This document shows, piece by piece, positions 12,761 to 33,246 of a DNA stretch of 64,000 bases. Positions within the stretch are counted from its first letter, which is position 1, and each line of letters opens with the position of its first letter. The position numbers and the translations under genes were made by a program. The notes under the pieces were generated by a model. The model saw nothing but the letters and a program-made list of their open reading frames with translations. It ran no database searches and was not told the DNA's origin. Origin of the DNA: an uncultured Anaerolineaceae bacterium (GTDB lineage Bacteria; Chloroflexota; Limnocylindria; Limnocylindrales; CSP1-4); NCBI GenBank assembly GCA_964425305.1, contig CAYRMQ010000003.1, forward strand, positions 2,162 to 66,161, in the 5' to 3' direction.

Positions 12761-14008
12761 CTAGGCGCGCTGTCCGAGCTTCTGCGCCGGCGGCGGCGCC
12801 AGCGCTGCCTGCGCCGCGGTCAGCCCGACGTCGAAGTCGGCGATGAGGTCTTCCGTGTCCTCCAGCCCGACTGAGACGCGCACCAGGCCCGGCCGGATTC
12901 CGGCCTCGGCCAGCTGCTGGTCGTCGAGCTGGCGGTGCGTCGTCGAGGGCGGGTGGACGCAGATCGTGCGGATGCTGCCCAGCGACGCCGTCAGTTCGGG
13001 CACGCTGAGGCCATCGATGAACGCCGCCGCCGCGCGCCGGTCGCCGAGGTCGAAGGCGAGCATGCCGCCGCCGAGGCTCAGCTGGCGCTGGGCGACGGCG
13101 AACTGGGGGTGGCTGGCCAGCCCCGGGTAATAGACCGCGCGCACACCGGCCCCGGCTTCGAGGTGGCGCGCCAGCGCCAGCGCGCTGCGCGCGTGCTGCT
13201 CCATCCGGACGTGCAGCGTGGCCATGCCGCGCAGCACCAGGAAGGCCGGCAGCGGGCCGAGCGTGGCGCCGGTGTCGATCTGCGTGCGCCGGATGGCGGC
13301 GACCCGCTCGCGCTCGCCGACGACGGCGCCGGCCAGCGCATCCGAGTGTCCGCCCAGCCACTTGGTGCACGACTCGACGACGAGGTCGGCGCCGAGCTCG
13401 ATCGGGCGGCAGATGTAGGGCGAGGCGAAGGTGTTGTCGACGACGACGGTCACGCCGCGGCGATGGGCCAGCTCGGCGAGAGCCGCGATGTCGGCGACGA
13501 CGATCGTCGGGTTGGCAATCGTCTCGAGGTAGAGCACGCGCGTGCGCGGCCCGATGGCGCGCGCGACGGCGTCGAGGTCGGTGACGTCGACGAACGTCGT
13601 GCGGATGCCCAGCCGGCGCAGCACGCCGTCGAGCAACGCATGAGTCGAGCCGTAGACCGCGCGCGTGCCAACGACCTCGTCGCCGCTCGCGAGCAGCGTC
13701 ACGAGCGTTGCATGTATGGCGGCCATGCCCGAGGCGAAGGCGTAGCCCGCCTCGGCGCCCTCGAGCTCAGCCAGCGCGCCGGCCAGCGCCGACGCCGTCG
13801 GGTTGTCGAGTCGGCTGTAGCTGTAGCCCGGCTGGCGATCGGAGAGGATGTCACCCAGCTCGTCGGCAGAGCGCGAGTTGAAGGTGACCGCCTGGTAGAT
13901 CGGCACCGCGCCGGGCTCCTGCTCTACTCGCGGCGTGCGCCTGACGGCGCGCAGCGCTCGCGTGCCGAAGCCAAGCCCCGGCCGCCGCTCGTCAGTCATC
14001 GGGCGCAT
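12761..14008 (-). CDS. PLP-dependent Cys/Met-metabolism enzyme (cystathionine gamma-synthase / O-acylhomoserine sulfhydrylase family)
   Basis: PLP-lysine motif …VVESCTKWLGGHSD… and family-wide conservation; start taken at internal ATG (MRPMTDERRP…), alternative ATG at 13999. Confidence 0.85.
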   Translation of the reverse strand: MRPMTDERRPGLGFGTRALRAVRRTPRVEQEPGAVPIYQAVTFNSRSADELGDILSDRQPGYSYSRLDNPTASALAGALAELEGAEAGYAFASGMAAIHATLVTLLASGDEVVGTRAVYGSTHALLDGVLRRLGIRTTFVDVTDLDAVARAIGPRTRVLYLETIANPTIVVADIAALAELAHRRGVTVVVDNTFASPYICRPIELGADLVVESCTKWLGGHSDALAGAVVGERERVAAIRRTQIDTGATLGPLPAFLVLRGMATLHVRMEQHARSALALARHLEAGAGVRAVYYPGLASHPQFAVAQRQLSLGGGMLAFDLGDRRAAAAFIDGLSVPELTASLGSIRTICVHPPSTTHRQLDDQQLAEAGIRPGLVRVSVGLEDTEDLIADFDVGLTAAQAALAPPPAQKLGQRA

Positions 14009-14094
14009 GCTACACCGGGTGCCCGGCAACGGCCGGCGCGGCATTGTGCAGGATGCACGATCTATCCGGGCGGCCCGCAGGCGGCCTCTCTGTG

Positions 14095-15369
14095 TCAGTC
14101 GGGTGGCTGCTCCCACGGCGCCGGCGGCTGCTCATCCGGCCGCGGACCGCGCGCCTGGTCCTCCTGGCGCAGGAAGTGGACGAGCTGGTTCTTGCCGCGG
14201 CGCTTGGCCTCGAACATCGCCAGATCGACGCGGCGCATCAGCTCCGCGCTCGTCCGCCCGTCGTCGGGGAAGCTGACCAGGCCGATCGACACCGACGTCT
14301 GCAGCATGTCGCCGTTCTCGCGCAGGGCCAGCCGCGCGATGTCGTAGCGCAGCTTCTCGCCCACACGCTTGGCGCCCTGGAGGTCGGTGTCGGGCAGCAC
14401 GACGACGAACTCGTCGCCGCCGAAGCGGGCGGCGAAGTCGCTCGCCCGGACGCCGCCACGGATGGCGTCGGCCGCCGCCCGCAGCAGGCGGTCGCCGGCC
14501 TCGTGGCCGTAGCGGTCGTTGGCCGCCTTCAGCCCGTCGATGTCGAGCATGAGCAGGCTGAACGGCCGGCCGGTGCGCTGGGCGCGGACGATCTCACGCT
14601 CGATCGCGGCGTCGAAGTAGCCGCGCGTATGGAGCCCGGTCAGGGCGTCGAAGCGCGACAGGCGCAGCGCCGATTCGCGCGCCCGGCGCTGCTCGCGGCC
14701 GATGACCGCGGCCACGTACGAGACGAGCGCGAGAGCGATCAGGTTGAAGCCGACGACACCCAGCTCCGGCTGGCCGATGGGCGGCACCCCCGGCGCGATC
14801 GCAACTGCCACCAGGTAGGCCGCGCTCGACAGCAGCGCGAGGGAGAACGGGACGATGCCCTCGGCCCACAGCGAAGCACCGGCAAGCAGCAGCAGGTAAC
14901 CGAAGAAGAACGGGCTCTGATAACCGCCGCTGAGCACGATCAGCAGCGACACGAAGACGATCGCGGCGACGGCCTCCACCGGATAGCGCAGGCGGCCCAG
15001 CACCGACAAGGGCAGGATGTCCTGGCCGATGACGATCAGGAACGCGCCCATCGCCAGCACGACGTAGGTCAGCGGCTGCTCGGCGAGCCCCGTGATCGTG
15101 ACGACGAAGAGCGCGGACCCGATGAACGAGTAGCTGACGACCCGCACGACGCGCTCGTAGAACCACGGCGACAGCACCGTGCCCTCGTACAGCTCGGACA
15201 GGCGCAGCGGGCCGTTGGCGCCGGTCGGCGGCTGGCCGGTGCCGGCGCCGTTGGGCAGCAGCAGGCCGTTGCGCCGTGCCGCCAGGCGCGGTAGGGCCAG
15301 CGCCGCGAACAGCAGCAGGTTGGCCCCCACGACTAGCGCCAGGAGAACTGCAAGGTGATCGATACGCAC
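14095..15369 (-). CDS. membrane-bound GGDEF-domain diguanylate cyclase
   Basis: About 6 TM helices followed by a canonical GGDEF domain (…RFGGDEFVVVL…, …SVSIGLVSF…). GTG start at 15369 chosen just before TM1; the ORF-track start 15492 would overlap the divergent Lrp gene. Confidence 0.8.
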   Translation of the reverse strand: MRIDHLAVLLALVVGANLLLFAALALPRLAARRNGLLLPNGAGTGQPPTGANGPLRLSELYEGTVLSPWFYERVVRVVSYSFIGSALFVVTITGLAEQPLTYVVLAMGAFLIVIGQDILPLSVLGRLRYPVEAVAAIVFVSLLIVLSGGYQSPFFFGYLLLLAGASLWAEGIVPFSLALLSSAAYLVAVAIAPGVPPIGQPELGVVGFNLIALALVSYVAAVIGREQRRARESALRLSRFDALTGLHTRGYFDAAIEREIVRAQRTGRPFSLLMLDIDGLKAANDRYGHEAGDRLLRAAADAIRGGVRASDFAARFGGDEFVVVLPDTDLQGAKRVGEKLRYDIARLALRENGDMLQTSVSIGLVSFPDDGRTSAELMRRVDLAMFEAKRRGKNQLVHFLRQEDQARGPRPDEQPPAPWEQPPD

Positions 15370-15472
15370 TTTCGGTGGAAGGGGCCGCCCGAAATGGGCG
15401 GCGGATGAGTGACATAGACCCCACCAGTGAACCGATGGTACTAGCCCGATCCGGGATCGGTACCACCTCCAG

Positions 15473-16012
15473 ATGGTTAGTGTCGACCGCATGCAACGGC
15501 CCCCCAGACGCCAGGCCGCCCGCGCCGACGAGCGCCTTTCCGAGCTCGACCGGCAGATAGTCCTGCGCCTGCAGGCCGACGGACGGCGGCCCTACACGCA
15601 GATCGCCACCGAGCTCGGCCTGAGCGAGGCCGCCGTGCGTGCACGCGCAAACAGGCTGATGAGCGAGGGAGTCCTCCAGATCGTGGCCATCCCCGACCCG
15701 CAACGGATGGGCTACGGTCTGATGGCCGTCATCGGCATCAACTGCGACGCCGCCCGCCTGCTCGACGTGGCAGAGGCTGTCTCAGCTCTGCCGGAGGCCG
15801 TCAGAGTTGTGGTGACTGCGGGCACCTTCGACCTGCTCGTCGAGGCCGCCTGCGAGGATCACGACGCGCTGCTCGAGCTGATGACGCGGCGGCTGGGCTC
15901 GATCGAGGGCGTTCAGGGCATGCACACCTTCGTCTACCTGCGCGTCGTCAAGCAGGCCCACCAGTGGGCCGCGCCGGGCGACCTCAGGCGCGCGGGCGGG
16001 CGGCGCGGATGA
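15473..16012 (+). CDS. Lrp/AsnC-family transcriptional regulator
   Basis: HTH (…RPYTQIATELGLSEAAVRARANRL…) plus a RAM/ACT-like C-terminal domain; alternative in-frame ATG at 15491. Divergent from the GGDEF gene. Confidence 0.8.
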   Translation: MVSVDRMQRPPRRQAARADERLSELDRQIVLRLQADGRRPYTQIATELGLSEAAVRARANRLMSEGVLQIVAIPDPQRMGYGLMAVIGINCDAARLLDVAEAVSALPEAVRVVVTAGTFDLLVEAACEDHDALLELMTRRLGSIEGVQGMHTFVYLRVVKQAHQWAAPGDLRRAGGRRG

Positions 16013-16799
16013 TGACGCTGTGCATGCCCGGCACGACCTCGTGCGTCGGCGTCAGGAGCACGCCGGTCAGGCCGGCGGCGGTAAGGCCCGCCTCGTACTC
16101 GGCGAACGAGAGCGCGCCGGCGATGCAGCCGGCGTAGGAGCCGCGGCGGGTACGTTCGGCGGCGCTGAGCGCATCGTCGGCGACGATGTCGGTGATGCCG
16201 ATCCGGCCGCCGGGACGGAGCACGCGCGCGATCTCGCCGAAGACGGCCTGCTTGTCGGCGGCCCGGTGGATGACGCAGTTGCTGATGACGACGTCGACCG
16301 ACTCCGCCGGCAGCGGGATCGATTCGATCTGCCCCTTGACGAAGTCGACGTTGGTGAGCCCGGCCTCGACGGCATTCGCGCGCGCGAGGGCGAGCATCTC
16401 GTCGGTCATGTCGAGGCCGATGGCGCGACCGCTGGGCCCGACGCGCCGCGCCGACAGCAATACGTCGATGCCGCCGCCCGAGCCGAGGTCGAGTACGACT
16501 TCGCCGGCATTCAGCTCGGCGACGGCGGTCGGGTTGCCGCAGCCGAGGGAGGCCATCACGGCGGCATCGGGCAGCTCGGCGCGCTGGACGGCATCGTACA
16601 GCCCGGCGCCGATGGCGGCCGAGCCGCAGCAGCTCGTGCTCTCGCTCGCAGGGAGCTGTGCGCCGGCATTGGTGGCGGGCGCGCAGCAGGCGGTCGCCTC
16701 GGTGGTGCAGCAAGCTGCGCTGTCGGTGCTGCCATCGAGGACGCGCAAGGCGGCGTCGGCGTAGTGACGCCGAACGGTTTCGTGGACGGACGAGGCCAT
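15984..16799 (-). CDS. arsM: arsenite S-adenosylmethionine methyltransferase (ArsM/Cyt19-like)
   Basis: SAM-MTase core (…VLDLGSGGGIDV…) preceded by a Cys-rich segment (…SAACCTTEATACCAP…) typical of ArsM. Start at ATG 16799 with AAAGGAAG Shine-Dalgarno; the ORF-track N-terminal extension is rejected. Confidence 0.8.
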   Translation of the reverse strand: MASSVHETVRRHYADAALRVLDGSTDSAACCTTEATACCAPATNAGAQLPASESTSCCGSAAIGAGLYDAVQRAELPDAAVMASLGCGNPTAVAELNAGEVVLDLGSGGGIDVLLSARRVGPSGRAIGLDMTDEMLALARANAVEAGLTNVDFVKGQIESIPLPAESVDVVISNCVIHRAADKQAVFGEIARVLRPGGRIGITDIVADDALSAAERTRRGSYAGCIAGALSFAEYEAGLTAAGLTGVLLTPTHEVVPGMHSVIIRAARPRA

Positions 16800-18662: not shown

Positions 18663-20963
18663 TCAGCCGGATCTGCCGTACGCCCTGGCCGTCCCATCGG
18701 CCGACGGCGAGCGCCGGCCGCGCGTGTCGGCCGCCTCCTCGGTGAAGTGCGGCAAGGCGAAGCCGAACTCGGCGCCGCCCTCCGCTCGCTGCCGCGCCCA
18801 GACGCGTCCGCTCATCGCGCCGACCAGACCCTTGCACACGAACAGTCCGATGCCGGCGCCCTGTGGCGTGCGCGTGCCTGGCGATCGGTAGTAGAGCGTG
18901 AACAGCTTGTCGGCCTCGTCGGGCCGGATGCCGGGGCCGTCGTCGACGACCCGGAACTGGACCTCGTCGCGGCCACTGCGGACCTCGACGTCGACCGTCG
19001 CCTTCGCGCCTGCGTACTTGGCCGCGTTGGAGAGCAGGTTGCGCACGATCAGCGTCAGGTACTCCTCGTCGGCGGCGACGAGCGGCAGGCCGTCGGCAAT
19101 CGACAGGTTGATCGTCATCTCCGGCCACAGCGGGCGCTCGCGGGCGACGACGTCGGTGAGCAGCGGCTTGACGGTCACCGGCCGCGGCTCGAAGAACTTG
19201 GCGCCGCGTTCGACGCGCGCCAGCACGAGCAGGTTCTCGATGATTTGCTGCAGCCGTTCCGACTCGGCGGCGATACCGCCGAGCAGCTCGAGGCGATCCT
19301 CGGCGGCCATCCGCCCGTCGCGTTTGAGCAGCAGCTGCGTGCCGCCGTAGATGGCCGTGATGGGTGTGCGCAGCTCGTGCGAGAGGATGCCCAGGAAGTG
19401 ATCGCGCAGCAGGCTCGCCTCGTGGCGCCAGGAGGCATCGGAGACGACGGCCAGCTCGTACGGCCGGCCCTCCAGCTGGAACGGCGTCAGCGCCACGTCC
19501 GCCGGGAAGGCCGCGCCGTCGAGCCGGTAGCCCGTCGCCTCGAGCCGGCGCGTCCCGTCCTCGCTGGACCCTTCGCCGGCCAGCGGTGCGTCGAGCTGGA
19601 TCAGCTCGTTGAGCGCCATGCCGTGCAGGCGGCCGGCGGTGCCGCCGAACAGCTCGGCCGTCGGGACCGTCGCCCACACCACCGTGCCCTCGGCGTCGGC
19701 GGCCAGTACCGCGTTGGGATGAGCCTGCAGCAGCGCGCGGAAACGGGTCTCGCTGGCGCGCACGGCGGCTGCCGCCTCGAGCTCCCGCCGCGCGTCGGCG
19801 AGCTGAACGATCGCCTCCTCGCGCTCCACCGCGCGGTAGGTCATCAGCCCCAGAAGCCCGAGCACCTCGAGGTCGTCCTCGACGAACAGCGGCCTGCCCT
19901 CCAGCTGCGTGGCCAGCGTCGCACGCAGCCTGCCGCCGGTGGCGATCGGTACGCGCGCGTTCGTCAACCGCCGCCGGCTCGGGGCCGCCCGGGTCGGCTC
20001 GTCGGTCGGCGCCTGCTCGGTCGGCGCCTGCTCGGTCGGCGCCTGCTCGGCCGCCGCCTGCTCGGCCGACGCCTGCTCGGCCTCCGCCAGCATGCCGCCC
20101 GAGGCATCGGTGATCGTCACCTTGCGCACGCCAAGGAGCCCCCGCGCGGTCTCGGCGAGGTTGCGCCACAGCAGCTCTGGCTCCGCGCCGGCGCTCGCGG
20201 TCACGAGATCACGCGCCAGGTCAAACGCCACCGCCCGATGGCCGGCCGTGCGCAGCCAGCCGGGTGGCACGAACGCGCCGAGGTAGCCAATCCCGGCGAG
20301 CAGGGCGGTGGTGCGCGCGATGAACAGGACCGACGGGTCCTGCTCGCCGCCCAGTGTTGCCGCGGCGCCGACTGCGGCGACCAGGATCGCGGCACCGAAC
20401 AGCCCGGTCGAAACGCCGGCCAGCGCCAGCCGGATACGCGCGATCCCGTAGCGGCGCTGGCTCTCACCGAGGAGGAGCATGGCGGCGGCGCCCTCGGCGA
20501 CGATGAAGTAGCCGCCGACGTAGAGGAGCGCCGGCACCGTCCGCTCAGGCGGCAGCAGGATGGCTGCCGCGGCGCTGACGAAGCCGATGGCCGCGAGCAT
20601 GAGCACCCAGCGGGCGATGGGCATGATCAGGCTGATGAGGACGAAGATCAGCACCGGCTGCGACAGCAGCAGCAGGATGGCCAGCGGCTGCAGGGCGTCG
20701 GCGATTCCGGGCGCAAAGCCGTCGACGACCGAGATCGCGAAGATCGCGGCGGTCGTGGCGAAGACGCCGACGACGGCCAGCTCGACGGTGCCCGGCCGGC
20801 GCACGTAGCGCCAGATCGCCGCCGCGAAGACCGCGAAGAAGGCAAGCTGAAGGAGAGAGTTGACGACGTTCACGCGCCCCCTGCCGTGTGGCCGGTCTGC
20901 ATCGGCGCTGCACAGATTGCCGCCGGCCGGACAGCCAGCGGCTTTGCCGGCCATTATGGCCAC
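18663..20963 (-). CDS. membrane sensor histidine kinase (multi-TM N-terminus, low-complexity linker, PAS, HisKA, HATPase_c)
   Basis: H-box …[15 protein letters not shown]… and N/G boxes (…LLSNAAKYA…, …DDGPGI…, …GAGIGLFV…). Possible alternative GTG start at 20873 just before TM1. No cognate response regulator adjacent. Confidence 0.8.
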
Positions 20964-23994: not shown

Positions 23995-24984
23995 ATGCCC
24001 ACGGCAGGCGCCAGCGTGCGCCGCTACCGTCCGCGCCTGCCCGCGCGTCCGCGCTCACCGGTACGGCTGCGCGCGATCGCAGGCGTTGTCCTGTTGCCGG
24101 CGGTGATCTATGCGTCGGGAGCAACGTCGCCGGTCATCGACCAACCGGTCTGGATCGGCCAGGCCGAGGCAGCGGTGGAGGTCCTCGAGGATGCCGGCGA
24201 AGTCTTCGTCGGCGCCGGCGACATCGCCTACTGCAACCACGACGGCCAGGACAGGACGGCCGCCCTGCTCGACGAGATCGAGGGCACGGTCTTCACCATC
24301 GGCGACAACTCGCAGAACGAGGGCACGCACCAGCAGTTCCGCGACTGCTACGACCCGAGCTGGGGCCGCCACAAGTGGCGCACGCGGCCGGCGATCGGCA
24401 ACCACGACCGGCTGACGCCCGACGGCGCCGGCTACTTCGACTACTTCGGCGAGGCGGCCGGGCCGTGGGGTCGGGGCTACTACTCCTACGACCTGGGCGA
24501 GTGGCACATCGTCGTGCTCGACAGCAACTGCGAGATCGTCAGCTGTGAGGCGGGCTCGGAGCAGGAGCGCTGGCTGCGCCGCGACCTCGCCGAGAACGCG
24601 ACCCGCTGCACGCTGGCGATCTGGCACCACCCCCTCTTCAACTCGGGCGAGGTGGGCAACCACCCGCAGGTGCGCCACCTGTGGATCGAGCTCGCCGAAG
24701 CGGGCGCCGACGTCGTGCTGACCGGCCATGATCACCACTACGAGCGCTTCGCGCGGCAGGACGTCGACGGTCGGCCCGACCCGACGGGCATGCGCCAGTT
24801 CATCGTCGGCACGGGCGGCGCCTTCTTCCACCGACCAGCCGCGCGCCAGCCGAACAGCGAGGTCTACCGAGTCGGCACGCTGGGCGTGCTGAAGATGGAG
24901 CTGTGGCCGACGAGCTACACGTGGGAGTTCATCGCCGTCCCGGGCGATCCCTTCACCGACCGCGGGCGCGAGGACTGCGTCTAG
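23995..24984 (+). CDS. secreted calcineurin-like metallophosphoesterase (purple-acid-phosphatase-like)
   Basis: Signal-like N-terminus; metal-ligand motifs …GAGDIAYC…, …GDNSQNEG…, …AIGNHD…, …GHDHHYER…; strong GAGGGAGGGGG Shine-Dalgarno. Confidence 0.8.
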   Translation: MPTAGASVRRYRPRLPARPRSPVRLRAIAGVVLLPAVIYASGATSPVIDQPVWIGQAEAAVEVLEDAGEVFVGAGDIAYCNHDGQDRTAALLDEIEGTVFTIGDNSQNEGTHQQFRDCYDPSWGRHKWRTRPAIGNHDRLTPDGAGYFDYFGEAAGPWGRGYYSYDLGEWHIVVLDSNCEIVSCEAGSEQERWLRRDLAENATRCTLAIWHHPLFNSGEVGNHPQVRHLWIELAEAGADVVLTGHDHHYERFARQDVDGRPDPTGMRQFIVGTGGAFFHRPAARQPNSEVYRVGTLGVLKMELWPTSYTWEFIAVPGDPFTDRGREDCV

Positions 24985-25976: not shown

Positions 25977-28900
25977 ATGTTCCTCGACAGCGTCCGCGGG
26001 CCAAGGCCAGGGCTCCAGGCGGTTGAACCACCGGCGTATGCTCGCGGGGTGCAGATCGGCGTGTTGGGGACGCTCGAAGCGCACACCGACGGCGTCTCTG
26101 TTCGGTTAGGGGGGCCGAAACAGCGGACGGTCCTGGCAATCCTGGTTGCCGAGGGGGGACGGTCGGTTCCGATCGACCGTCTCGTCGATCTCGTTTGGGG
26201 CGAGGAGCCGCCGACGGGCGCCAGGAGCACGCTTCACACCTACATCTCGAATCTGCGTGCCGCGCTTGGCGACGTCGTCGTGCGCGACGGCGGTGGCTAT
26301 CGCCTCGACCTGCCGCGGGAGGCAGTCGACGCGTTTCGCTTCGAGGACGACGTTGCGCGCGCCAGGGAGACAAGAGATTCGCAGCCACTGGAGGCGGCTC
26401 AGCGGTTGCGGGAGGCGCTGAAGTTGTGGCGGGGTCGGCCGTATGCCGACGTGTCCGACTCGCCTTTCCTGGAGCAGGAGGCCCGGCGCCTGGAGGAGCT
26501 GCGCTTGACGGCCATCGAGAACCGCGTCGACGCCGAGCTGGCGCTGGGCAACCACGCCGAGCTGGTCGGTGAGCTCGAGGTGCTCACGGCCGAGAATCCT
26601 CTGCGCGAGCACCTGCGCGCGGCGCACATGCTGGCGCTGTACCGTGCGGGTCGCCAGGCGGAGGCGCTTCGCGCCTACCATAAGACGCGCACGCTGCTGG
26701 CCGAGGAGCTGGGCATCGATCCCTCGCCCGCCCTGCAGGAGCTCGAGGGCAAGATCCTGCGCCAGGACCACTCGCTCGACCTGGAGAGCGAGCCTCGCGT
26801 CGAGACGCTCGTCTTCCTGCTGTCCGACATCGAGGACTCAACCGTCCTGTGGGAACTGCACCAGCGCGAGATGGGTCCTGCCGTGGCGCTGTACGACGCG
26901 ATCGTCAGCGAGGCGGTCGAGGGAGCTGGCGGACGAGTGGTCAAGCGCGTGGGCGACGGCCTCGACGCCGTGTTCTCTGACGCGGGCGGCGCGGTGGTCG
27001 CCGCGCGTGAGGCGCAGCGGGCGCTGCAACGGGGGACCTGGGGCGAAACGGGTCCGCTCAAGGCTCGCATGGCGATCGATGTCGGCGAAGTAGAGGCGCG
27101 AGGAGGTGGATACTTCGGCCCTGTCCTCAATCGCTGCGGTCGGATCCTGGCCTCCGGTCACGGCGGGCAGATCCTTCTCTCGGCCGAGGCGCATGCCGCG
27201 CTGTCGGGCGCGCAGGCGGGCTGGCAGGTCCGCGCACTGGGCGAGTTCCGCTTCAAGGGCCTGGGCCGTCCGCAACGCGTCTTCCAGCTACTGGTTGACG
27301 ACCTGCCGACGGAGTTTCCCGAGCTGCGCATCGACCGACTGCCGGCGACGGCCAGGATCAGCGTCGAGCGAGCCGTGCGGGGCTACGAGCTGCGCGAGCA
27401 GGTGGGAGGGGGAGACTTCGGCGTCGTTTACCGCGCCTACCAGCCGGCGGTCGGCCGCGAGGTGGCGGTCAAGGTCATTCGGCCCGAGTTCGTCAATCAG
27501 CCCTCCTTCGTGCGCCGCTTCGAGAGCGAAGCGCAGATGGTGGCCCAGCTCGAGCACCCCCACATCGTGGCGCTCTACGACTACTGGCGGGATCCCGATG
27601 GCGCTTACCTTGTCATGCGCTGGCTGCGCGGGGGCGCGCTGAGTGACGCGCTCGATCGCGGACCCTGGCACCTCGAGCCGGCTTCACGGCTGCTGGCGCA
27701 GGTCGGCTCGGCTCTCGCCTACGCCCATCGCCAGGGGATCGTGCATCGCGACCTCAAGCCGGGCAACGTGCTGCTCGACGAGGAGGGCAACGCCTACCTG
27801 TCGGACTTCGGCGTGGCGGCGCGCCTGGTCGACGCATCCGAGTCGGGTCGGCCGGTCTCCTCGTCGCCCGCCTATGTGACACCCGAGGAGCTGCGGGGCG
27901 AGCCGCTGCGCGCGCCGTCGGACATCTTCGCGCTGGGGCTGCTTACGTTCGAGTTGCTCTCTGGTCGCCGCCCACCGATGGACCGCTCCCTCCCCTCGCT
28001 CAGGCGGCTGCGACCAGAGCTGCCCGAAGGAATCGACGAGATCATCGCTCGCGCGACGGCCGATCAACCGGCGGCCCGCTACTCAACGGTGGACGGGTTC
28101 CTGGCAGCGTTCCTCGACGTGCTGGGCCAGGCTCCGGTGGCCGAGGAAGCCGGCTTCACGCCAACACGCAACCCGTACAAGGGGCTGCAGGCCTTCAGCG
28201 AGTTCGACGAGCAGGACTTCCATGGTCGGCAGGGGTTGATCGAGGAGCTGACCGAAGCGCTCAAGAAGCACCGTTTCCTGGCCGTCGTGGGGCCCTCGGG
28301 CATCGGCAAGTCATCTGTCGTGCGCGCTGGGCTGGTGCCGGCGCTACGCGCCGGCGCGTTGCCCGGATCCCGTGATTGGCTGGTAACCGACATGTTCCCC
28401 GGCTCCTATCCCTTCGAGGAGCTGGAGGCCGCGTTGCTGCGCATAGCCGTCGAGCGCCCGGTGGGCATGACCGAGGATCTGGCTCGGGACGAACGCGGCA
28501 TCCTGCGCGTCAGCAAGCGCATCCTGCCGACCAGCGCGCAGGCGATGCTCGTCATCGACCAGTTCGAGGAGCTGTTCACGCTGACCTCCGACGAGGAGAC
28601 GCGCCGGCTTTTCCTCGATGCGCTCGCCACACTGGTCACCGACCCGCGTTCCAGGATGCGCGTGGTCATCACCCTGCGCGCTGACTTCTTCGACCGTCCC
28701 CTGCGCTACCGAGCCTTCGGGGACCTGCTGCGTGACAGGATGGTAGCCGTCACCGCGCCCGGCGAAGGAGAGCTGACTGCCGCCATCGTCAGGCCGGCGG
28801 AGGCCGTTGGCGTGCGCTTCGAGGCCGGTCTCGTCGACCGCATCATCACTGACGTCAGTAGTCAGCCGGGCGCACTGCCGCTGCTGCAGTATGCGCTGAC

Positions 28901-31900
28901 CGAGCTCTTTGCCTCGCGCACCTCCGACCTGCTGACCGTTCACGGCTACCAGGCTTCGGGGCGCGTGCTGGGCGCGCTTGGACGACGGGCTGAGGAGCTC
29001 TACGAGTCGCTCGATGAGGATGGCCGAGAGGCCGCTCGGCAGGTGTTCCTGCGCCTGGTGGCAGTCAGCGAGGTGGGCGAGGACACGCGCCGGCGCGTCC
29101 GCCACCAGGAGCTCGACGCGCTGGGAGTGGATGCGCTGACTCTCGACGAGGTGCTGCGCCGATACGGCGAGTACCGGCTGCTGACCTTCGATCGCGACCC
29201 GCTGACCCGCGGGCCCACGGTGGAAGTGGCCCACGAGGCGCTGCTGACCGAGTGGCATCGGCTGCGCGACTGGATCGCCGAGCGGCGTGAGGACCTGCTG
29301 CTCCAGAGACGCCTGGCCGATGCCCTTGGCGAGTGGGAGCAGGCCGGCCGGGATGCCTCATACCTGCTGAGCGGCGGGCGGCTGCAGCAGTTCGCCGCCT
29401 GGGCGGACGGCACCGACCTTGCCTTGACCACCCAAGAGCGCGAGTACCTGCACGACAGCGAGGCTGCCGAGGCAGAGCGCAGGCGCCTCCAGCGGCGCCG
29501 GCGGCGAGCCATCATGGCCGGCTTCGGCGCAGCCGCAGCCCTGTCGCTGGTCCTCGCTGCGGTCGCATATCTCAACGAACGCCAAGCGCTGCACAACGAG
29601 CAGCTGGCGCACGCTCGAGAGCTGGCCGCAGCGGCGATCAGCGTCCGCGACACCGATCCTGAACTGAGCATCCTCCTGTCGATCGCGGCGCACGAGGCGG
29701 CGCCCGACGGCGAGGCGCCGCCGCGCGAAGTCGTGTCAGTCCTCCACCAGACGGTCCGCTCCAGCCGGATGCTTGTCAGCCGGCCGTGGGAGGCTGACTT
29801 CGGGCTCAGCTGGTCGCCACTGGGCGGCTCGTTGAGTCCTGACGGGACGCTGGTCGCCGCCAGCGGCTGGTCCGACACTCTGCAGGTGTGGGACGCAGCC
29901 ACCGGCGAGGTGCGCTGGGAGCTGCGGGACGATGAGAGCGGCGGCTGGTTCTGGTGGCCCCAGTTCAGCCCGGACGGCTCAAGGCTGGTGGTGGCCTTCA
30001 GCCGCTACTGGGAAGAAGGCCGCCGAGTCGACGGCGGCCTGGCCGCCGGCATCTACTTCTTCCACTCGCGCAACGGGGAGTTGTTGGACATGCTGCCGCC
30101 GCCGACGGAATGCGACTGGGTTGGAATGGCGGGACCTAATGCACTCAGCCTCGACGGCAACCACCTGATCCGCCTGGTCGATCGAGGCGGCGAAGACCCC
30201 GAGACGGGGTGTTACTCCTACGAAGGGCCTGAGAACAACCCCCTGGCGACGCGGGAACTCGAGGTAGTCGATATCCGTACGCTCGAAGTCGTCTATCGCA
30301 CCGACGTGACCTACCCGTACGGCGAGAACCGCGGCCATGGGCAGGCGGGCGTGGACATCGCCGGCAACCGGCTGATCGTGGGAGACCTGTCCGGTGATCA
30401 TGGAACGACGCGCATGATCGACCTCGTCGACGGCAGCGTGCTCTGGGAAAGGGCGGCTGTCGGCGGCTTTCTCAGTCCCGATGGCTCGGTGGCGGCGCTG
30501 GCCGGCGGCGGCGCAGCCCAGCGGCGTATCGAGCTCGTCGATCCTGCGACGGGCGACCTACTGGGCGAGCTGGTTGGCCACAGAGCGCATACCGACGCCG
30601 TGGTCTTCAGCCGCGACGGCCGGCTCGCCTACTCGGCAGGCATGGACGGGACGGCTCGGGTGTGGGACGTGGCCACTGGCGAGAACCTGCTGACCCTCGG
30701 TGGTGACAAGCAAGGCTTGATATCTCTGTCGCCGGACGAAAGTGGCGCGAGATTGGCCACATTCGGGTTCGACGGCAACACCCGGATGTGGGACCTGACC
30801 GCGCAGCCCCTGACCGAGGTGGGGACCGCGATCGATCTGCGCCCCGCGCAGGTCGCCCTAAGGGGCATCATGGCAAGCGGTGGTCTGGCGACTGTCGCCG
30901 GTTTCCTTGGAGAATGCCCCGACCAGGAAGGGTTCTCCATCGTCTTCAATGCCGAGACCGGCACGACCATGCGACGCTTCACCGACTCGGCCGGCCAGAT
31001 GGAGGCGTTGCTACCCGACGGTACGGGCGTCCTCCACCAGCTGCTTGTGCTGTACGGGCCGGAGATCAGCTGCGCCGACGAGATCCTTGGCCCGCTCGTC
31101 ATCCGCGATCTGACGAGCGGCGAGACACGCATCGAGCTGGAGGGCTGGTGCGAGTGGGCGGATCCCGGCGACTGCGCCTCCCCGCCTGAAGTGCCGTACG
31201 CCGACTTCGTAAACGCACTGGCCGTGTCCGATGACGGGAGAATTGCCGTCGCCGGTGGCCCCAGCGGTGCGGCGTCGATCTGGGACGTGCACGAAGGCTC
31301 CCTGCACGGGACGATAGGACCATTCCAGGGTGAGGGGTGGATCCAGGGCGTCGCCGTCCACCCGGACGGGAGAACCGCGGTCGTAACCAGCTCTGAGGCC
31401 CTTTACATCGTGGACCTCGACAGTGCGCTGAACATACGGCAGGAGCTGCGGAGTCACCACGGCTTCGTCGCCTTCAATCCCGGTGGATCACTGCTCGCCG
31501 TTGGCGAACCCCGCCTGACGATGTACCGAACCGAGGATTGGGAGGTCATGTGGGAGGTGGATGCTCACGATGGCGGGGTTCCCCACCTCGGCTTCAGCCC
31601 GGACGGGACTGCCCTCGTGACCACCGGCCCGGACGGCTTCGTGCGCCTGTGGAGCGCGACTGACGGCAACCTGCTGCAGGTCGTTCCACTGGGCGACGAT
31701 TGGGCCAAGGCGGTGGCCTTCGTCAACGAGCGGCACGTGCTCATAGGTACGTCCAATGGCCTGGTGGTCGGCCTCACCTTCGACGTCGACGAGCTCGTCG
31801 AGATCGGCCGCTCCCGGGTGACTCGTTCGCTGACCGATCAGGAGTGCCGGACGTACCTGCGCATCGACGAGTGCCCGTCAGACATGGAGACGACCGCGTC

Positions 31901-31907
31901 TCAGTAG
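25977..31907 (+). CDS. 1976-aa multidomain signalling protein: SARP wHTH+BTAD / class III nucleotide cyclase / Ser-Thr protein kinase / STAND P-loop NTPase / single TM helix / WD40 beta-propeller
   Basis: Single uninterrupted ORF. Approximate domain coordinates: SARP 26049..26771 (…YRLDLPREAVDAFRFEDDV…, BTAD …ELRLTAIENRVDAELALGNHAELVGELE…); cyclase 26799..27311 (FLLSDIEDST, KRVGDG, GPVLNRCGRI); kinase 27378..28136 (GGGDFGVVY, VAVK, HRDLKPGNVLL, DFG); NTPase 28164..28976 (NPYKGLQAFSEFDEQDFHGRQ, Walker A GPSGIGKSS, Walker B MLVIDQFEE); TM 29508..29573 (AIMAGFGAAAALSLVLAAVAYL); WD40-like repeats 29769..31904. Confidence 0.85.
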   Translation: MFLDSVRGPRPGLQAVEPPAYARGVQIGVLGTLEAHTDGVSVRLGGPKQRTVLAILVAEGGRSVPIDRLVDLVWGEEPPTGARSTLHTYISNLRAALGDVVVRDGGGYRLDLPREAVDAFRFEDDVARARETRDSQPLEAAQRLREALKLWRGRPYADVSDSPFLEQEARRLEELRLTAIENRVDAELALGNHAELVGELEVLTAENPLREHLRAAHMLALYRAGRQAEALRAYHKTRTLLAEELGIDPSPALQELEGKILRQDHSLDLESEPRVETLVFLLSDIEDSTVLWELHQREMGPAVALYDAIVSEAVEGAGGRVVKRVGDGLDAVFSDAGGAVVAAREAQRALQRGTWGETGPLKARMAIDVGEVEARGGGYFGPVLNRCGRILASGHGGQILLSAEAHAALSGAQAGWQVRALGEFRFKGLGRPQRVFQLLVDDLPTEFPELRIDRLPATARISVERAVRGYELREQVGGGDFGVVYRAYQPAVGREVAVKVIRPEFVNQPSFVRRFESEAQMVAQLEHPHIVALYDYWRDPDGAYLVMRWLRGGALSDALDRGPWHLEPASRLLAQVGSALAYAHRQGIVHRDLKPGNVLLDEEGNAYLSDFGVAARLVDASESGRPVSSSPAYVTPEELRGEPLRAPSDIFALGLLTFELLSGRRPPMDRSLPSLRRLRPELPEGIDEIIARATADQPAARYSTVDGFLAAFLDVLGQAPVAEEAGFTPTRNPYKGLQAFSEFDEQDFHGRQGLIEELTEALKKHRFLAVVGPSGIGKSSVVRAGLVPALRAGALPGSRDWLVTDMFPGSYPFEELEAALLRIAVERPVGMTEDLARDERGILRVSKRILPTSAQAMLVIDQFEELFTLTSDEETRRLFLDALATLVTDPRSRMRVVITLRADFFDRPLRYRAFGDLLRDRMVAVTAPGEGELTAAIVRPAEAVGVRFEAGLVDRIITDVSSQPGALPLLQYALTELFASRTSDLLTVHGYQASGRVLGALGRRAEELYESLDEDGREAARQVFLRLVAVSEVGEDTRRRVRHQELDALGVDALTLDEVLRRYGEYRLLTFDRDPLTRGPTVEVAHEALLTEWHRLRDWIAERREDLLLQRRLADALGEWEQAGRDASYLLSGGRLQQFAAWADGTDLALTTQEREYLHDSEAAEAERRRLQRRRRRAIMAGFGAAAALSLVLAAVAYLNERQALHNEQLAHARELAAAAISVRDTDPELSILLSIAAHEAAPDGEAPPREVVSVLHQTVRSSRMLVSRPWEADFGLSWSPLGGSLSPDGTLVAASGWSDTLQVWDAATGEVRWELRDDESGGWFWWPQFSPDGSRLVVAFSRYWEEGRRVDGGLAAGIYFFHSRNGELLDMLPPPTECDWVGMAGPNALSLDGNHLIRLVDRGGEDPETGCYSYEGPENNPLATRELEVVDIRTLEVVYRTDVTYPYGENRGHGQAGVDIAGNRLIVGDLSGDHGTTRMIDLVDGSVLWERAAVGGFLSPDGSVAALAGGGAAQRRIELVDPATGDLLGELVGHRAHTDAVVFSRDGRLAYSAGMDGTARVWDVATGENLLTLGGDKQGLISLSPDESGARLATFGFDGNTRMWDLTAQPLTEVGTAIDLRPAQVALRGIMASGGLATVAGFLGECPDQEGFSIVFNAETGTTMRRFTDSAGQMEALLPDGTGVLHQLLVLYGPEISCADEILGPLVIRDLTSGETRIELEGWCEWADPGDCASPPEVPYADFVNALAVSDDGRIAVAGGPSGAASIWDVHEGSLHGTIGPFQGEGWIQGVAVHPDGRTAVVTSSEALYIVDLDSALNIRQELRSHHGFVAFNPGGSLLAVGEPRLTMYRTEDWEVMWEVDAHDGGVPHLGFSPDGTALVTTGPDGFVRLWSATDGNLLQVVPLGDDWAKAVAFVNERHVLIGTSNGLVVGLTFDVDELVEIGRSRVTRSLTDQECRTYLRIDECPSDMETTASQ

Positions 31908-32524
31908 CCGCGTTCTCGTAGCCGGTCACCCATCACCCGGGCGGCTTGCGCGCGGTGCGAGATGGCGTTCTTCTCGGCGGCACTCAGCTGACCCACCGTT
32001 CGGCCGCCCATCGGCTCGTCGGCCGGCTCGAAGACGGGGTCATAGCCGAAGCCGCCGGTGCCCCGCGGCTCTAGCGCGATGCGCCCCTCGAAGACACCGT
32101 TGGTCTGGGTCAGCCGCGGCTCTTCATCCTCGCCCGGCTCGGCGAGGACCAGCACGCAGCGGTAACGCGCCGTCCGCTCGGCCGGCGGCACTCCGTCCAT
32201 CTCGCGCAGCAGCAGGGCATTGTTCTCCGCATCGGTCGCCGTCGCGCTGGCGTAGCGGCGGGTGTGCACGCCGGGCCGGCCGTCGAGCGCGTCGACCTCC
32301 AGGCCCGAGTCGTCGGCCAGCGTCGGCAGGCCGGATTGTCGGGCGTAATGAAGTGCCTTGGCCGTGGCGTTCTGCTCGAATGTCTCGCCGTCCTCGGTCG
32401 CGTCGTCGGCCAGCCCGGCGTCGGCCAGCGAGACGACCTCCGTCCGCGGCAGGTCGAGCAGCGCGCGCAGCTCATCCAGCTTGTGCTGTGAACCGGTGGC
32501 GATCAGCAGACGACGGCCGCTCAC
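31901..32524 (-). CDS. rdgB: non-canonical purine NTP pyrophosphatase (dITP/XTP pyrophosphatase, Ham1/RdgB)
   Basis: …[14 protein letters not shown]…, …FGYDPVF…, …[14 protein letters not shown]…; GTG start overlaps the rph stop (GTGA). The 403-aa ORF 31901..33112 is a mis-extended version. Confidence 0.85.
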
Positions 32525-33246
32525 TCGTTGCCGAGTACCGTCCGCTGCATCGAGAACAGCTGCTGCAGCCCGCCGTCCGCCAGCTCGAGCAGGCTGTCCA
32601 TCGACGCCCGGTCGAAGGGCTTGCCCTCGGCCGTCCCCTGGACCTCGACATACGTCCCGCGGTCCGTGCCGACGACGTTGAAGTCGACCTCCGCCCGCGA
32701 GTCCTCGGAGTAGTCGAGGTCGAGCAGCGGCACGCCGTCGACGACGCCGACGCTGACGGCCGCGATCTGGCCGTCGAGGGCGCCCTCGGCGCCGATCTTG
32801 CGCAGCGCCAGCGCCAGCGCGATGTAGCCGCCGGTGATCGAGGCCGTGCGCGTGCCGCCGTCCGCCTGCAGGACATCGCAGTCGACGGTCACCGTCCGCT
32901 CGCCGAGCTTGGCGGTGTCGACCACGCCGCGCAGCGCCCGCCCGATGAGCCGCTGGATCTCCATCGTTCGCCCGCCCTGGCGGCCCTTGACGACCTCGCG
33001 CTGGGTTCTCTCCGAGGTGGCGCGGGGCAGCATGTTGTACTCGGCCGTCACCCAGCCGACGCCCTTGCCGCGCAGGTGCGGCGGGATGCGGTCCTCGATC
33101 GTCGCCGCGCACAGCACGCGTGTGTCACCCATCTCGATCGTGCACGAGCCCTCGGCCCACTTCTGGACGTCGAGCGCGAAACGAACCGGCCGCAGCTGGC
33201 GCGGTGAGCGCCCGTCGGTGCGGAAGCGGCCGCCCGCGATGCTCAC
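32521..33246 (-). CDS. rph: ribonuclease PH
   Basis: …[13 protein letters not shown]…, …[12 protein letters not shown]…, …[19 protein letters not shown]…; 241 aa from an in-frame GTG. The ORF-track version 32521..33993 carries a non-homologous Arg-rich extension. Confidence 0.85.

Follow-up and report, generated by a model that had tools for sequence, protein, structure and literature searches.

In Actinobacteria, class III nucleotide cyclase domains whose catalytic residues are mostly intact are known to occur fused to STAND (signal transduction ATPase with numerous domains) NTPases. In Mycobacterium tuberculosis, the proteins Rv0386, Rv1358, and Rv2488c each combine a class IIIc cyclase homology domain (CHD) with a STAND/MalT-type ATPase, tetratricopeptide repeats (TPRs), and a LuxR helix-turn-helix (HTH) domain. 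The nSTAND1 clade of NTPases was delineated in proteins of conflict systems, whose N-terminal effectors include kinases (PMC8195603), and cyclic nucleoside monophosphate (cNMP) cyclases have been reported as effectors of the related iSTAND2 systems (PMC8195603). Here we describe a CHD that is encoded at positions 26799 to 27311 of the forward strand of a 64,000-nucleotide stretch of DNA from an uncultured Anaerolineaceae bacterium (contig CAYRMQ010000003.1). The whole stretch is referred to as the window, and all positions given are window positions. The CHD is part of a 1,976-amino-acid protein that is predicted to unite a SARP (Streptomyces antibiotic regulatory protein) module, the CHD, a Ser/Thr kinase, an nSTAND1 NTPase, a transmembrane (TM) helix, and WD40 propellers on one chain. 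We argue that the CHD is most likely an adenylyl cyclase, a reading that we hold with moderate confidence.

RESULTS

The segment from 26799 to 27311 is predicted to adopt a class III cyclase fold.

The DNA of the window is rich in G+C (about 0.67 to 0.75). On the forward strand, positions 26799 to 27311 are read in frame 1 as a stop-free segment of 171 amino acids, and the opposite strand of the same region is interrupted by stops. An earlier note on this DNA, made from the sequence alone, had proposed that the segment is a functional and probably adenylyl cyclase and had quoted three motifs in its support. All three lie in frame: FLLSDIEDST at amino acids 280 to 289 (26814 to 26843), VVKRVGDG at amino acids 321 to 328 (26937 to 26960), and GPVLNRCGRI at amino acids 381 to 390 (27117 to 27146). 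The segment corresponds to amino acids 275 to 445 of a single uninterrupted open reading frame (ORF) of 1,976 amino acids (25977 to 31907, forward strand).

A phmmer search of the PDB with the CHD returned Ma1120 of Mycobacterium avium as the best match (E value of 1.2e-14, about 32% identity), followed by the trypanosomal GRESAG4.1/4.3, 3MR7, Rv1900c, and CyaB. With a profile of the CHD family, the match to Ma1120 reached an E value of 4.8e-42, and the profile also retrieved more than 40 further chains of class III cyclases, including Rv1264, CyaC, Cya2, Rv1625c, photoactivated cyclases, guanylyl cyclases, and soluble guanylyl cyclase. An AlphaFold2 model of the CHD, built from 88 sequences, was of high confidence (pLDDT of 94.5, pTM of 0.90) and had the expected order of strands and helices. 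The top 50 matches of this model in a Foldseek search of the PDB were all class III cyclases, and the match to Ma1120 had an E value of 2.8e-14, TM-scores of 0.92 to 0.94, and root mean square deviations of 1.1 to 2.0 Å.

We relied on these PDB searches and on the structural model to settle the identity of the domain, since the profile libraries were less decisive. The Pfam family PF00211 matched only amino acids ~388 to 441 with 20.2 bits, below its gathering cutoff of 21.9 bits, and was not among the top matches of the whole-protein scan; NCBIfam gave only a weak match to LipJ. More distant relatives clear PF00211 with 28 to 49 bits, and the shortfall in the window CHD is therefore ascribed to the sensitivity of the model rather than taken as evidence against homology. 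A domain just under the Pfam threshold is easily overlooked in routine annotation. The low PF00211 score is also what could be said for the view that the motifs arose by chance in a region that is not a cyclase domain, a view whose probability we put at practically nil: it is refuted by E values of 1e-14 to 5e-42 against solved cyclases in the sequence and profile searches, by the AlphaFold2 model with its Foldseek TM-score of 0.92, and by the size of the family, as 28,947 relatives at an E value of ≤1e-3 and 12,458 library representatives at an E value of ≤1e-10 emerged when 1.84 billion representatives were searched exhaustively. Taken together, sequence comparison and modeling indicate that the segment encodes a genuine class III cyclase fold. 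Its predicted dimerization arm has 7 residues (EVEARGG) between G370 and position 378, compared with 14 in Rv1625c. An arm of about 7 residues is the criterion for class IIIc (Linder, PMC4626032), and the CHD is assigned to class IIIc on this basis.

The active site is canonical except for Gly378.

To locate the active-site residues, the window CHD was aligned with 80 relatives and with Rv1625c, the C2 domain of mammalian AC2 (AC2-C2), and Ma1120. The canonical catalytic positions are D256, K296, D300, D365, N372, and R376 in Rv1625c and include K938, D1018, N1025, and R1029 in AC2. The Rv1625c reference is identical to 4P2M across the catalytic domain; two residues in the N-terminal flank differed, and there the sequence printed in the PDB was used. 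The AC2-C2 reference is identical to 1CUL_B, and the Ma1120 sequence was taken from the PDB search output. Each reference was tied to its numbering through a single residue, and the other published numbers followed from the alignment, among them K101, D157, A164, A167, and R168 of Ma1120 (PMC4215837). Conservation was counted in a related set of 82 loci from public genomes and metagenomes. The features of the domain are as follows.

26799 to 27311, forward strand: class IIIc-type CHD, amino acids 275 to 445 (PDB phmmer and profile searches, AlphaFold2 model, Foldseek, reference alignment)
26826 to 26828, forward strand: D284 (in SDIEDST), first metal Asp, equivalent to Rv1625c D256 (alignment; Asp in 80 of the 80 covering relatives)
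26943 to 26957, forward strand: K323-R-V-G-D327 (alignment; Lys in 77 and Asp in 81 of the 81 covering relatives)
27108 to 27110, forward strand: G378 (codon GGA, in GGGYFG) at the adenine-selecting Asp position, the sole noncanonical active-site residue (alignment)
27129 to 27143, forward strand: N385-R-C-G-R389, transition-state pair (alignment; Asn in 77 and Arg in all 82 related loci)
27255 to 27257, forward strand: K427 in FRFKGLG, equivalent to the gamma-phosphate-binding K1065 of mammalian AC2 (alignment; Lys in 61 and Arg in 18 relatives)

The earlier note had placed the two metal-binding Asp residues in FLLSDIEDST and VVKRVGDG, an adenine-specifying Lys four residues before the second of these, and the transition-state Asn/Arg pair in GPVLNRCGRI, and the alignment bears out each of these assignments. 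D284 and D327 align with D256 and D300 of Rv1625c, the latter also with D105 of Ma1120; K323 takes the adenine-selecting position of Rv1625c K296, Ma1120 K101, and AC2 K938; N385 aligns with Rv1625c N372 and AC2 N1025; and R389 aligns with Rv1625c R376, Ma1120 R168, and AC2 R1029. N385 and R389 are four residues apart, the spacing of class III enzymes. The misalignment that the note had named as its own refutation was thus not found. Across the 82 related loci, the six canonical positions (D/K/D/D/N/R) are 94 to 100% conserved.

The sixth of these positions had been overlooked. G378 aligns with D365 of Rv1625c, D157 of Ma1120, and D1018 of AC2, so that the adenylyl-specific combination of Lys with Asp (or Thr) is represented by K323 only. 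The window CHD does not have the guanylyl-specific combination either, in which Glu is followed by Cys, Ser, Thr, His, Ala, or Gly (PMC4215837), as its first specificity position is Lys323 and not Glu. A sequencing error was rejected as the source of Gly378: the relatives have GAC or GAT at this codon, GGA is two base changes away from either, and an error in one base would not account for it. H306Y, considered as a second private substitution, was likewise rejected, since Tyr306 is shared with the closest relative, P0104, and is thus a trait of the clade.

The Lys/Gly pair is compatible with a slower adenylyl cyclase.

The Lys/Gly pair of the window CHD is also that of the Ma1120 mutant D157G (PMC4215837). 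At pH 8, the mutant had a Vmax of 55 nmol cAMP/min/mg, compared with 166 nmol cAMP/min/mg for the wild type, or about 3-fold lower; its Km for ATP was 40 µM, compared with 174 µM; and its kcat/Km was 1.98 × 10^6 versus 1.25 × 10^6 for ATP and 0.006 × 10^6 versus 0.11 × 10^6 for GTP, an approximately 18-fold drop for the latter (PMC4215837). With a Km for GTP that rose 16-fold, D157G is a slower but still ATP-selective adenylyl cyclase (PMC4215837). Because this mutant remains an ATP-selective adenylyl cyclase, activity of the window CHD is still likely despite Gly378. By analogy, the functional consequence of Gly378 is probably mild, and turnover is probably reduced relative to that of an enzyme with Asp. 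The residues and this analogy together make adenylyl cyclase the most likely function, with moderate confidence. The "probably adenylyl" part of the earlier proposal therefore holds by way of the D157G kinetics, but its residue list was one position short. A natural Lys/Gly pair is also present in P0209, and a Lys/Ala pair is present in P0187, among the best 145 library representatives.

It is conceivable that the pair instead marks an active cyclase with an altered or relaxed substrate, be it GTP, both purines, or, as in Pycsar, pyrimidine NTPs. Gly is natural at this position in the guanylyl cyclase Cya2, there as part of a Glu/Gly pair (PMC4215837), but the first specificity position of the window CHD is Lys323. 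A Gln/Asn pair gives dual specificity to a mycobacterial LuxR-type cyclase (bioRxiv 10.1101/2024.03.06.583649), but the Asp-to-Gly change made Ma1120 more ATP selective, with the 16-fold-higher Km for GTP noted above (PMC4215837). PADLOC returned, besides generic kinase matches, a weak match to PycC (E value of 0.0023); at 15 bits, this points to generic class III similarity, and the gene lies in a housekeeping locus with no adjacent cNMP-activated effector gene. We therefore regard a changed substrate as quite improbable.

The CHD is one of six modules of a predicted transmembrane protein.

The remaining features of the 1,976-amino-acid protein are listed here.

25977 to 31907, forward strand: whole ORF, 1,976 amino acids, with SARP, CHD, Ser/Thr kinase, nSTAND1, TM helix, and WD40 (ORF list, translation, Pfam/NCBIfam scans)
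26112 to 26759, forward strand: SARP module, composed of winged-helix Trans_reg_C (amino acids 46 to 110) and BTAD (amino acids 117 to 261) (Pfam BTAD, 155 bits; Trans_reg_C, 33 bits)
27303 to 27341, forward strand: conserved post-CHD linker motif LPxxFP(P/E)LRIDR (alignments; F447 96% and P448 90% conserved)
27384 to 28151, forward strand: Hanks-type Ser/Thr kinase, amino acids 470 to 725 (Pfam Pkinase, 158 bits; NCBIfam match; motif scan)
28173 to 29357, forward strand: nSTAND1 NTPase, amino acids 733 to 1127, Walker A GPSGIGKS and Walker B MLVIDQ (Pfam PF20703, motif scan)
29508 to 29573, forward strand: one predicted TM helix, amino acids 1178 to 1199, preceded by an Arg-rich stretch (hydropathy scan; kept in 7 orthologues)
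30507 to 31766, forward strand: WD40 beta-propeller region, amino acids ~1511 to 1930, probably extracytoplasmic (Pfam WD40 and beta-propeller matches)

The NCBIfam AfsR model covers amino acids 12 to 271, and AfsR chains in the PDB match the BTAD part in a profile search. The CHD occupies the space between the BTAD and the kinase, and the linker motif that follows it is shared, as LPxxFPPLR, with relatives of ~1,000 amino acids that have a CHD, an NB-ARC, and TPRs. The kinase retains the VAVK, HRDLK, DFG, and TPE motifs. Assignment of the NTPase to nSTAND1 is based on a PF20703 match of 399 bits over 378 of the 379 profile positions and on the presence of both Walker motifs. The first 1,177 amino acids contain a single Cys, compared with eight in the C-terminal 777 residues (amino acids 1200 to 1976; 29574 to 31904), and in the orthologues the C-terminal Cys count is likewise even. 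Because of the TM helix and these skewed, even Cys counts, the WD40 propellers are probably outside the cytoplasm and disulfide bonded, an unusual arrangement for the sensor region of a STAND protein. The third-codon-position G+C content of the ORF is 0.83, compared with 0.89 to 0.96 in most neighboring genes, which may reflect a difference in codon usage or relaxed selection.

The literature searched contained no description of this six-module TM architecture and nothing relevant on a SARP/STAND protein with a cyclase or on the combination of BTAD, cyclase, WD40, and kinase, and an exact-sequence lookup of the full protein returned no record. The architecture is a more interesting aspect of the protein than the CHD itself.

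The architecture recurs in soil bacteria, with and without an intact cyclase signature.

The best relatives are from metagenome-assembled genomes (MAGs) of soil Actinomycetes, Thermoleophilia, and Acidimicrobiia, with 58 to 68% identity. The closest, P0104, has 1,885 amino acids, the same architecture, and 79% identity in the CHD. A collinear SARP-CHD-kinase-nSTAND1(-WD40) arrangement was found in 15 of the 82 loci, from MAGs of the same three groups, and five full-length orthologues were confirmed by Pfam. Identity to the orthologues was 57 to 70% in the CHD, 50 to 70% in the SARP module, 51 to 76% in the kinase, and 55 to 69% in the NTPase, compared with 25 to 36% in the WD40 part (29664 to 31904; compared with L001, L005, L007 to L009, L056, and L060). 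The CHD is thus as strongly conserved between orthologues as the SARP, kinase, and NTPase modules, and the pattern suggests a conserved signaling core joined to a sensor that evolves fast. The majority of the other relatives are proteins of ~1,000 amino acids with a CHD, NB-ARC/AAA_16, and TPRs; one locus, L070, has an intermediate architecture of SARP, CHD, and NB-ARC.

Among the 21 representatives of the giant architecture (>1,500 amino acids), 14 have the full D/K/D/D/N/R signature. Here the observations that weigh against an active adenylyl cyclase come together. The other 7 of the 21 have lost a metal Asp, the Lys, or the Asn and have kept the domain: in P0110, Glu, Asn, and Gly replace metal Asp 1, the Lys, and metal Asp 2, respectively, P0131 has Gly for the Lys and Arg for an Asp, and P0223, P0181, P0120, P0167, and P0152 deviate as well. 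According to Pfam, P0110, P0131, P0223, and P0181 retain BTAD, kinase, nSTAND1, and WD40, except for the BTAD of P0131, which seems to be truncated at its N terminus. Because the eroded members keep the architecture, erosion appears to be tolerated and catalysis to be dispensable in some lineages. In the window protein itself, G378 is private: the 82 related loci have Asp (79 loci), Glu (2 loci), or His (1 locus) at this position, and P0104 carries Asp as well. The window CHD also departs from the family at 7 of 51 conserved positions, which puts it in the upper tail. To these points are added the PF00211 score described above and the lack of a cNMP-binding domain in all 31 scanned proteins of the window; moreover, dimerization, STAND gating, and enzyme activity are themselves inferred. 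Retention of residues, which the earlier note had used as its evidence for activity, is accurate for the residues that it named but is a weaker argument than was assumed, given the 7 eroded relatives.

These observations invite the view that the CHD is attenuated or dead and serves mainly as a dimerization or spacer module between the SARP and the kinase, with Gly378 as an early step of decay. The private Gly378, the noncanonical sites within the full architecture, and the low third-position G+C content of the ORF would fit, but the metal Asps, Lys, Asn, Arg, and phosphate-binding Lys are all intact, the corresponding Asp-to-Gly change costs Ma1120 only about 3-fold in Vmax without lowering its kcat/Km for ATP (PMC4215837), and the AlphaFold2 model is very confident. 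We consider an attenuated domain rather unlikely, and it is the erosion within the family, together with the 7 deviating positions, that keeps us from rating it lower. The CHD probably also has a structural, dimerizing role. Adenylyl cyclase activity remains the preferred reading.

Several side observations were made on the relatives. A sister subfamily, P0028 to P0095, consists of proteins of ~280 amino acids in which an N-terminal PF20223 domain precedes the CHD, and its signature is consistently noncanonical, with Asp for the specificity Lys, Gly for the specificity Asp, and often His for the Asn. In L001 and L002 (ENA assemblies ERZ25039555 and ERZ25039531), the giant gene was called as several short frame-shifted genes, seemingly owing to frameshift errors of the assembly, which is why the first protein search gave fragments of 330 amino acids or less. 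The idea that such short matches represent a different architecture was rejected, as they are frameshift-split gene calls in metagenome assemblies. Downstream of the giant gene in L002 are a Response_reg+Guanylate_cyc gene (13104 to 13985) and a GAF/GAF histidine kinase hybrid (13924 to 16643), a pair that is not present in the window.

The gene lies among housekeeping genes.

Upstream of the giant gene are genes for an F420-type LLM oxidoreductase, a Metallophos protein, a methyltransferase, and an MFS transporter, and downstream are genes for Ham1, MazG, and a peptidyl-prolyl isomerase (PPIase). Glutamine synthetase, MreB/MreC, RadC, GMP synthase, and IMP dehydrogenase (IMPDH) are encoded farther off in the window, and the locus is a housekeeping chromosomal region. 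The neighbors show no synteny with the orthologous loci, so that no conserved partner gene, such as one for a cNMP receptor or a phosphodiesterase, emerged from the comparison. One neighbor was considered individually.

23995 to 24984, forward strand: Metallophos (calcineurin-like phosphoesterase) gene, two genes upstream, not syntenic in the orthologous loci

Its product bears only a faint resemblance to the model of the cAMP phosphodiesterase CpdA, with a score of 18 bits against a cutoff of 225 bits. A Pycsar system or defense island was rejected as well, based on the generic nature of the PADLOC matches, the lack of an adjacent cNMP-activated effector gene, and the housekeeping surroundings. 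Also nearby are genes for a GGDEF diguanylate cyclase protein (465 amino acids; 14095 to 15492, reverse strand) and a histidine kinase (766 amino acids; 18663 to 20963, reverse strand). The Ham1 (ITPase) domain covers only amino acids 202 to 394 of a 403-amino-acid ORF (31901 to 33112, reverse strand), the N-terminal ~200 amino acids of which have no Pfam match; the ORF has either an overextended start or a fused domain.

DISCUSSION

The data presented here suggest that the CHD lies on the cytoplasmic side of a STAND receptor that crosses the membrane once. Dimerization is a prerequisite of class III catalysis (PMC4626032), and the CHD would be active only as a head-to-tail dimer, in which the metal Asps D284 and D327 of each chain would be placed opposite K323, G378, N385, and R389 of its partner. 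In the mechanism that we propose, a signal would be sensed by the WD40 part, upon which the nSTAND1 module would oligomerize in an NTP-dependent manner and, most likely, supply the proximity that the CHD requires; cAMP synthesis, trans-phosphorylation by the kinase, and DNA binding by the SARP module would then be turned on jointly. Such an oligomerization model seems the most economical one, because the SARP, CHD, and kinase modules are all proximity dependent and all lie N-terminal to the STAND NTPase.

If the CHD is active, one polypeptide would connect sensing at the cell surface with cAMP production, phosphorylation of proteins, and transcription and would be a compact model of how STAND oligomerization gates dimer-dependent enzymes. 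In addition, the natural Asp-to-Gly change offers a ready test of the weight of this residue beyond the laboratory mutants of Ma1120. We tentatively raise the idea, possible but still doubtful, that the window protein belongs, with its orthologues in soil Actinomycetota (roughly 20 clusters or more), to a class of TM STAND receptors on one chain that has not been described before. A fast-evolving, disulfide-bonded WD40 sensor outside the cytoplasm would drive oligomerization of the NTPase and thereby switch on the SARP, kinase, and cAMP outputs together, and in the window protein the natural Lys/Gly pair would tune cAMP production.

With regard to known systems, the likeness to Pycsar is limited to the class III cyclase fold that the CHD has in common with PycC; the match is one of 15 bits, no cNMP-dependent effector is adjacent, and Lys323 indicates a purine substrate. 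The nSTAND1 conflict-system proteins (Kaur, Burroughs, Iyer, and Aravind, eLife 2021, PMC8195603) share with the window protein the NTPase clade, N-terminal effector or signaling domains, and C-terminal repeats. Unlike in these systems, EAD, caspase, or TIR partners are absent from the window locus, its neighbors are not conserved, and the outputs of the protein (SARP, kinase, and cyclase) are regulatory rather than toxic effectors. AfsR and other SARP-STAND regulators of Streptomyces also begin with a winged HTH and BTAD, followed by a STAND NTPase and repeats, but AfsR lacks a cyclase, a kinase, and a TM segment, and its NTPase is an NB-ARC with TPRs.

For the domain alone, the class IIIc adenylyl cyclase Ma1120 of M. 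avium (PDB 4WP9 and 5D0E) is the best match in both sequence and structure. Both are minimal CHDs that span about 165 residues and have a short arm, and the Lys, the two metal Asps, the Arg, and the phosphate-binding Lys align. The two differ in that Asp157 of Ma1120 corresponds to Gly378, that Ala164 corresponds to the canonical Asn385, and that Ma1120 is a small stand-alone enzyme, whereas the window CHD forms part of a multidomain protein of 1,976 amino acids.

For the protein as a whole, the closest parallel is Rv0386 and its kind. As in those proteins, a class IIIc CHD, a STAND-type NTPase, a repeat sensor, and a DNA-binding domain are found on one polypeptide, and the Rv0386/Rv2488c-type layout is that of most relatives of the window CHD (bioRxiv 10.1101/2024.03.06.583649). 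All four component types of a STAND-coupled cyclase regulator are present, in a different order and of different types, and a kinase and a TM helix come in addition. In the window protein, a SARP module at the N terminus takes the place of the LuxR HTH at the C terminus, a Ser/Thr kinase separates the CHD from the NTPase, the NTPase belongs to the nSTAND1 clade, a TM helix and WD40 propellers are found instead of TPRs, and the specificity pair is Lys/Gly instead of the Gln/Asn of the mycobacterial enzyme (bioRxiv 10.1101/2024.03.06.583649). Judged by its predicted domains, it is a further member of the STAND-coupled class IIIc cyclases, a known kind.

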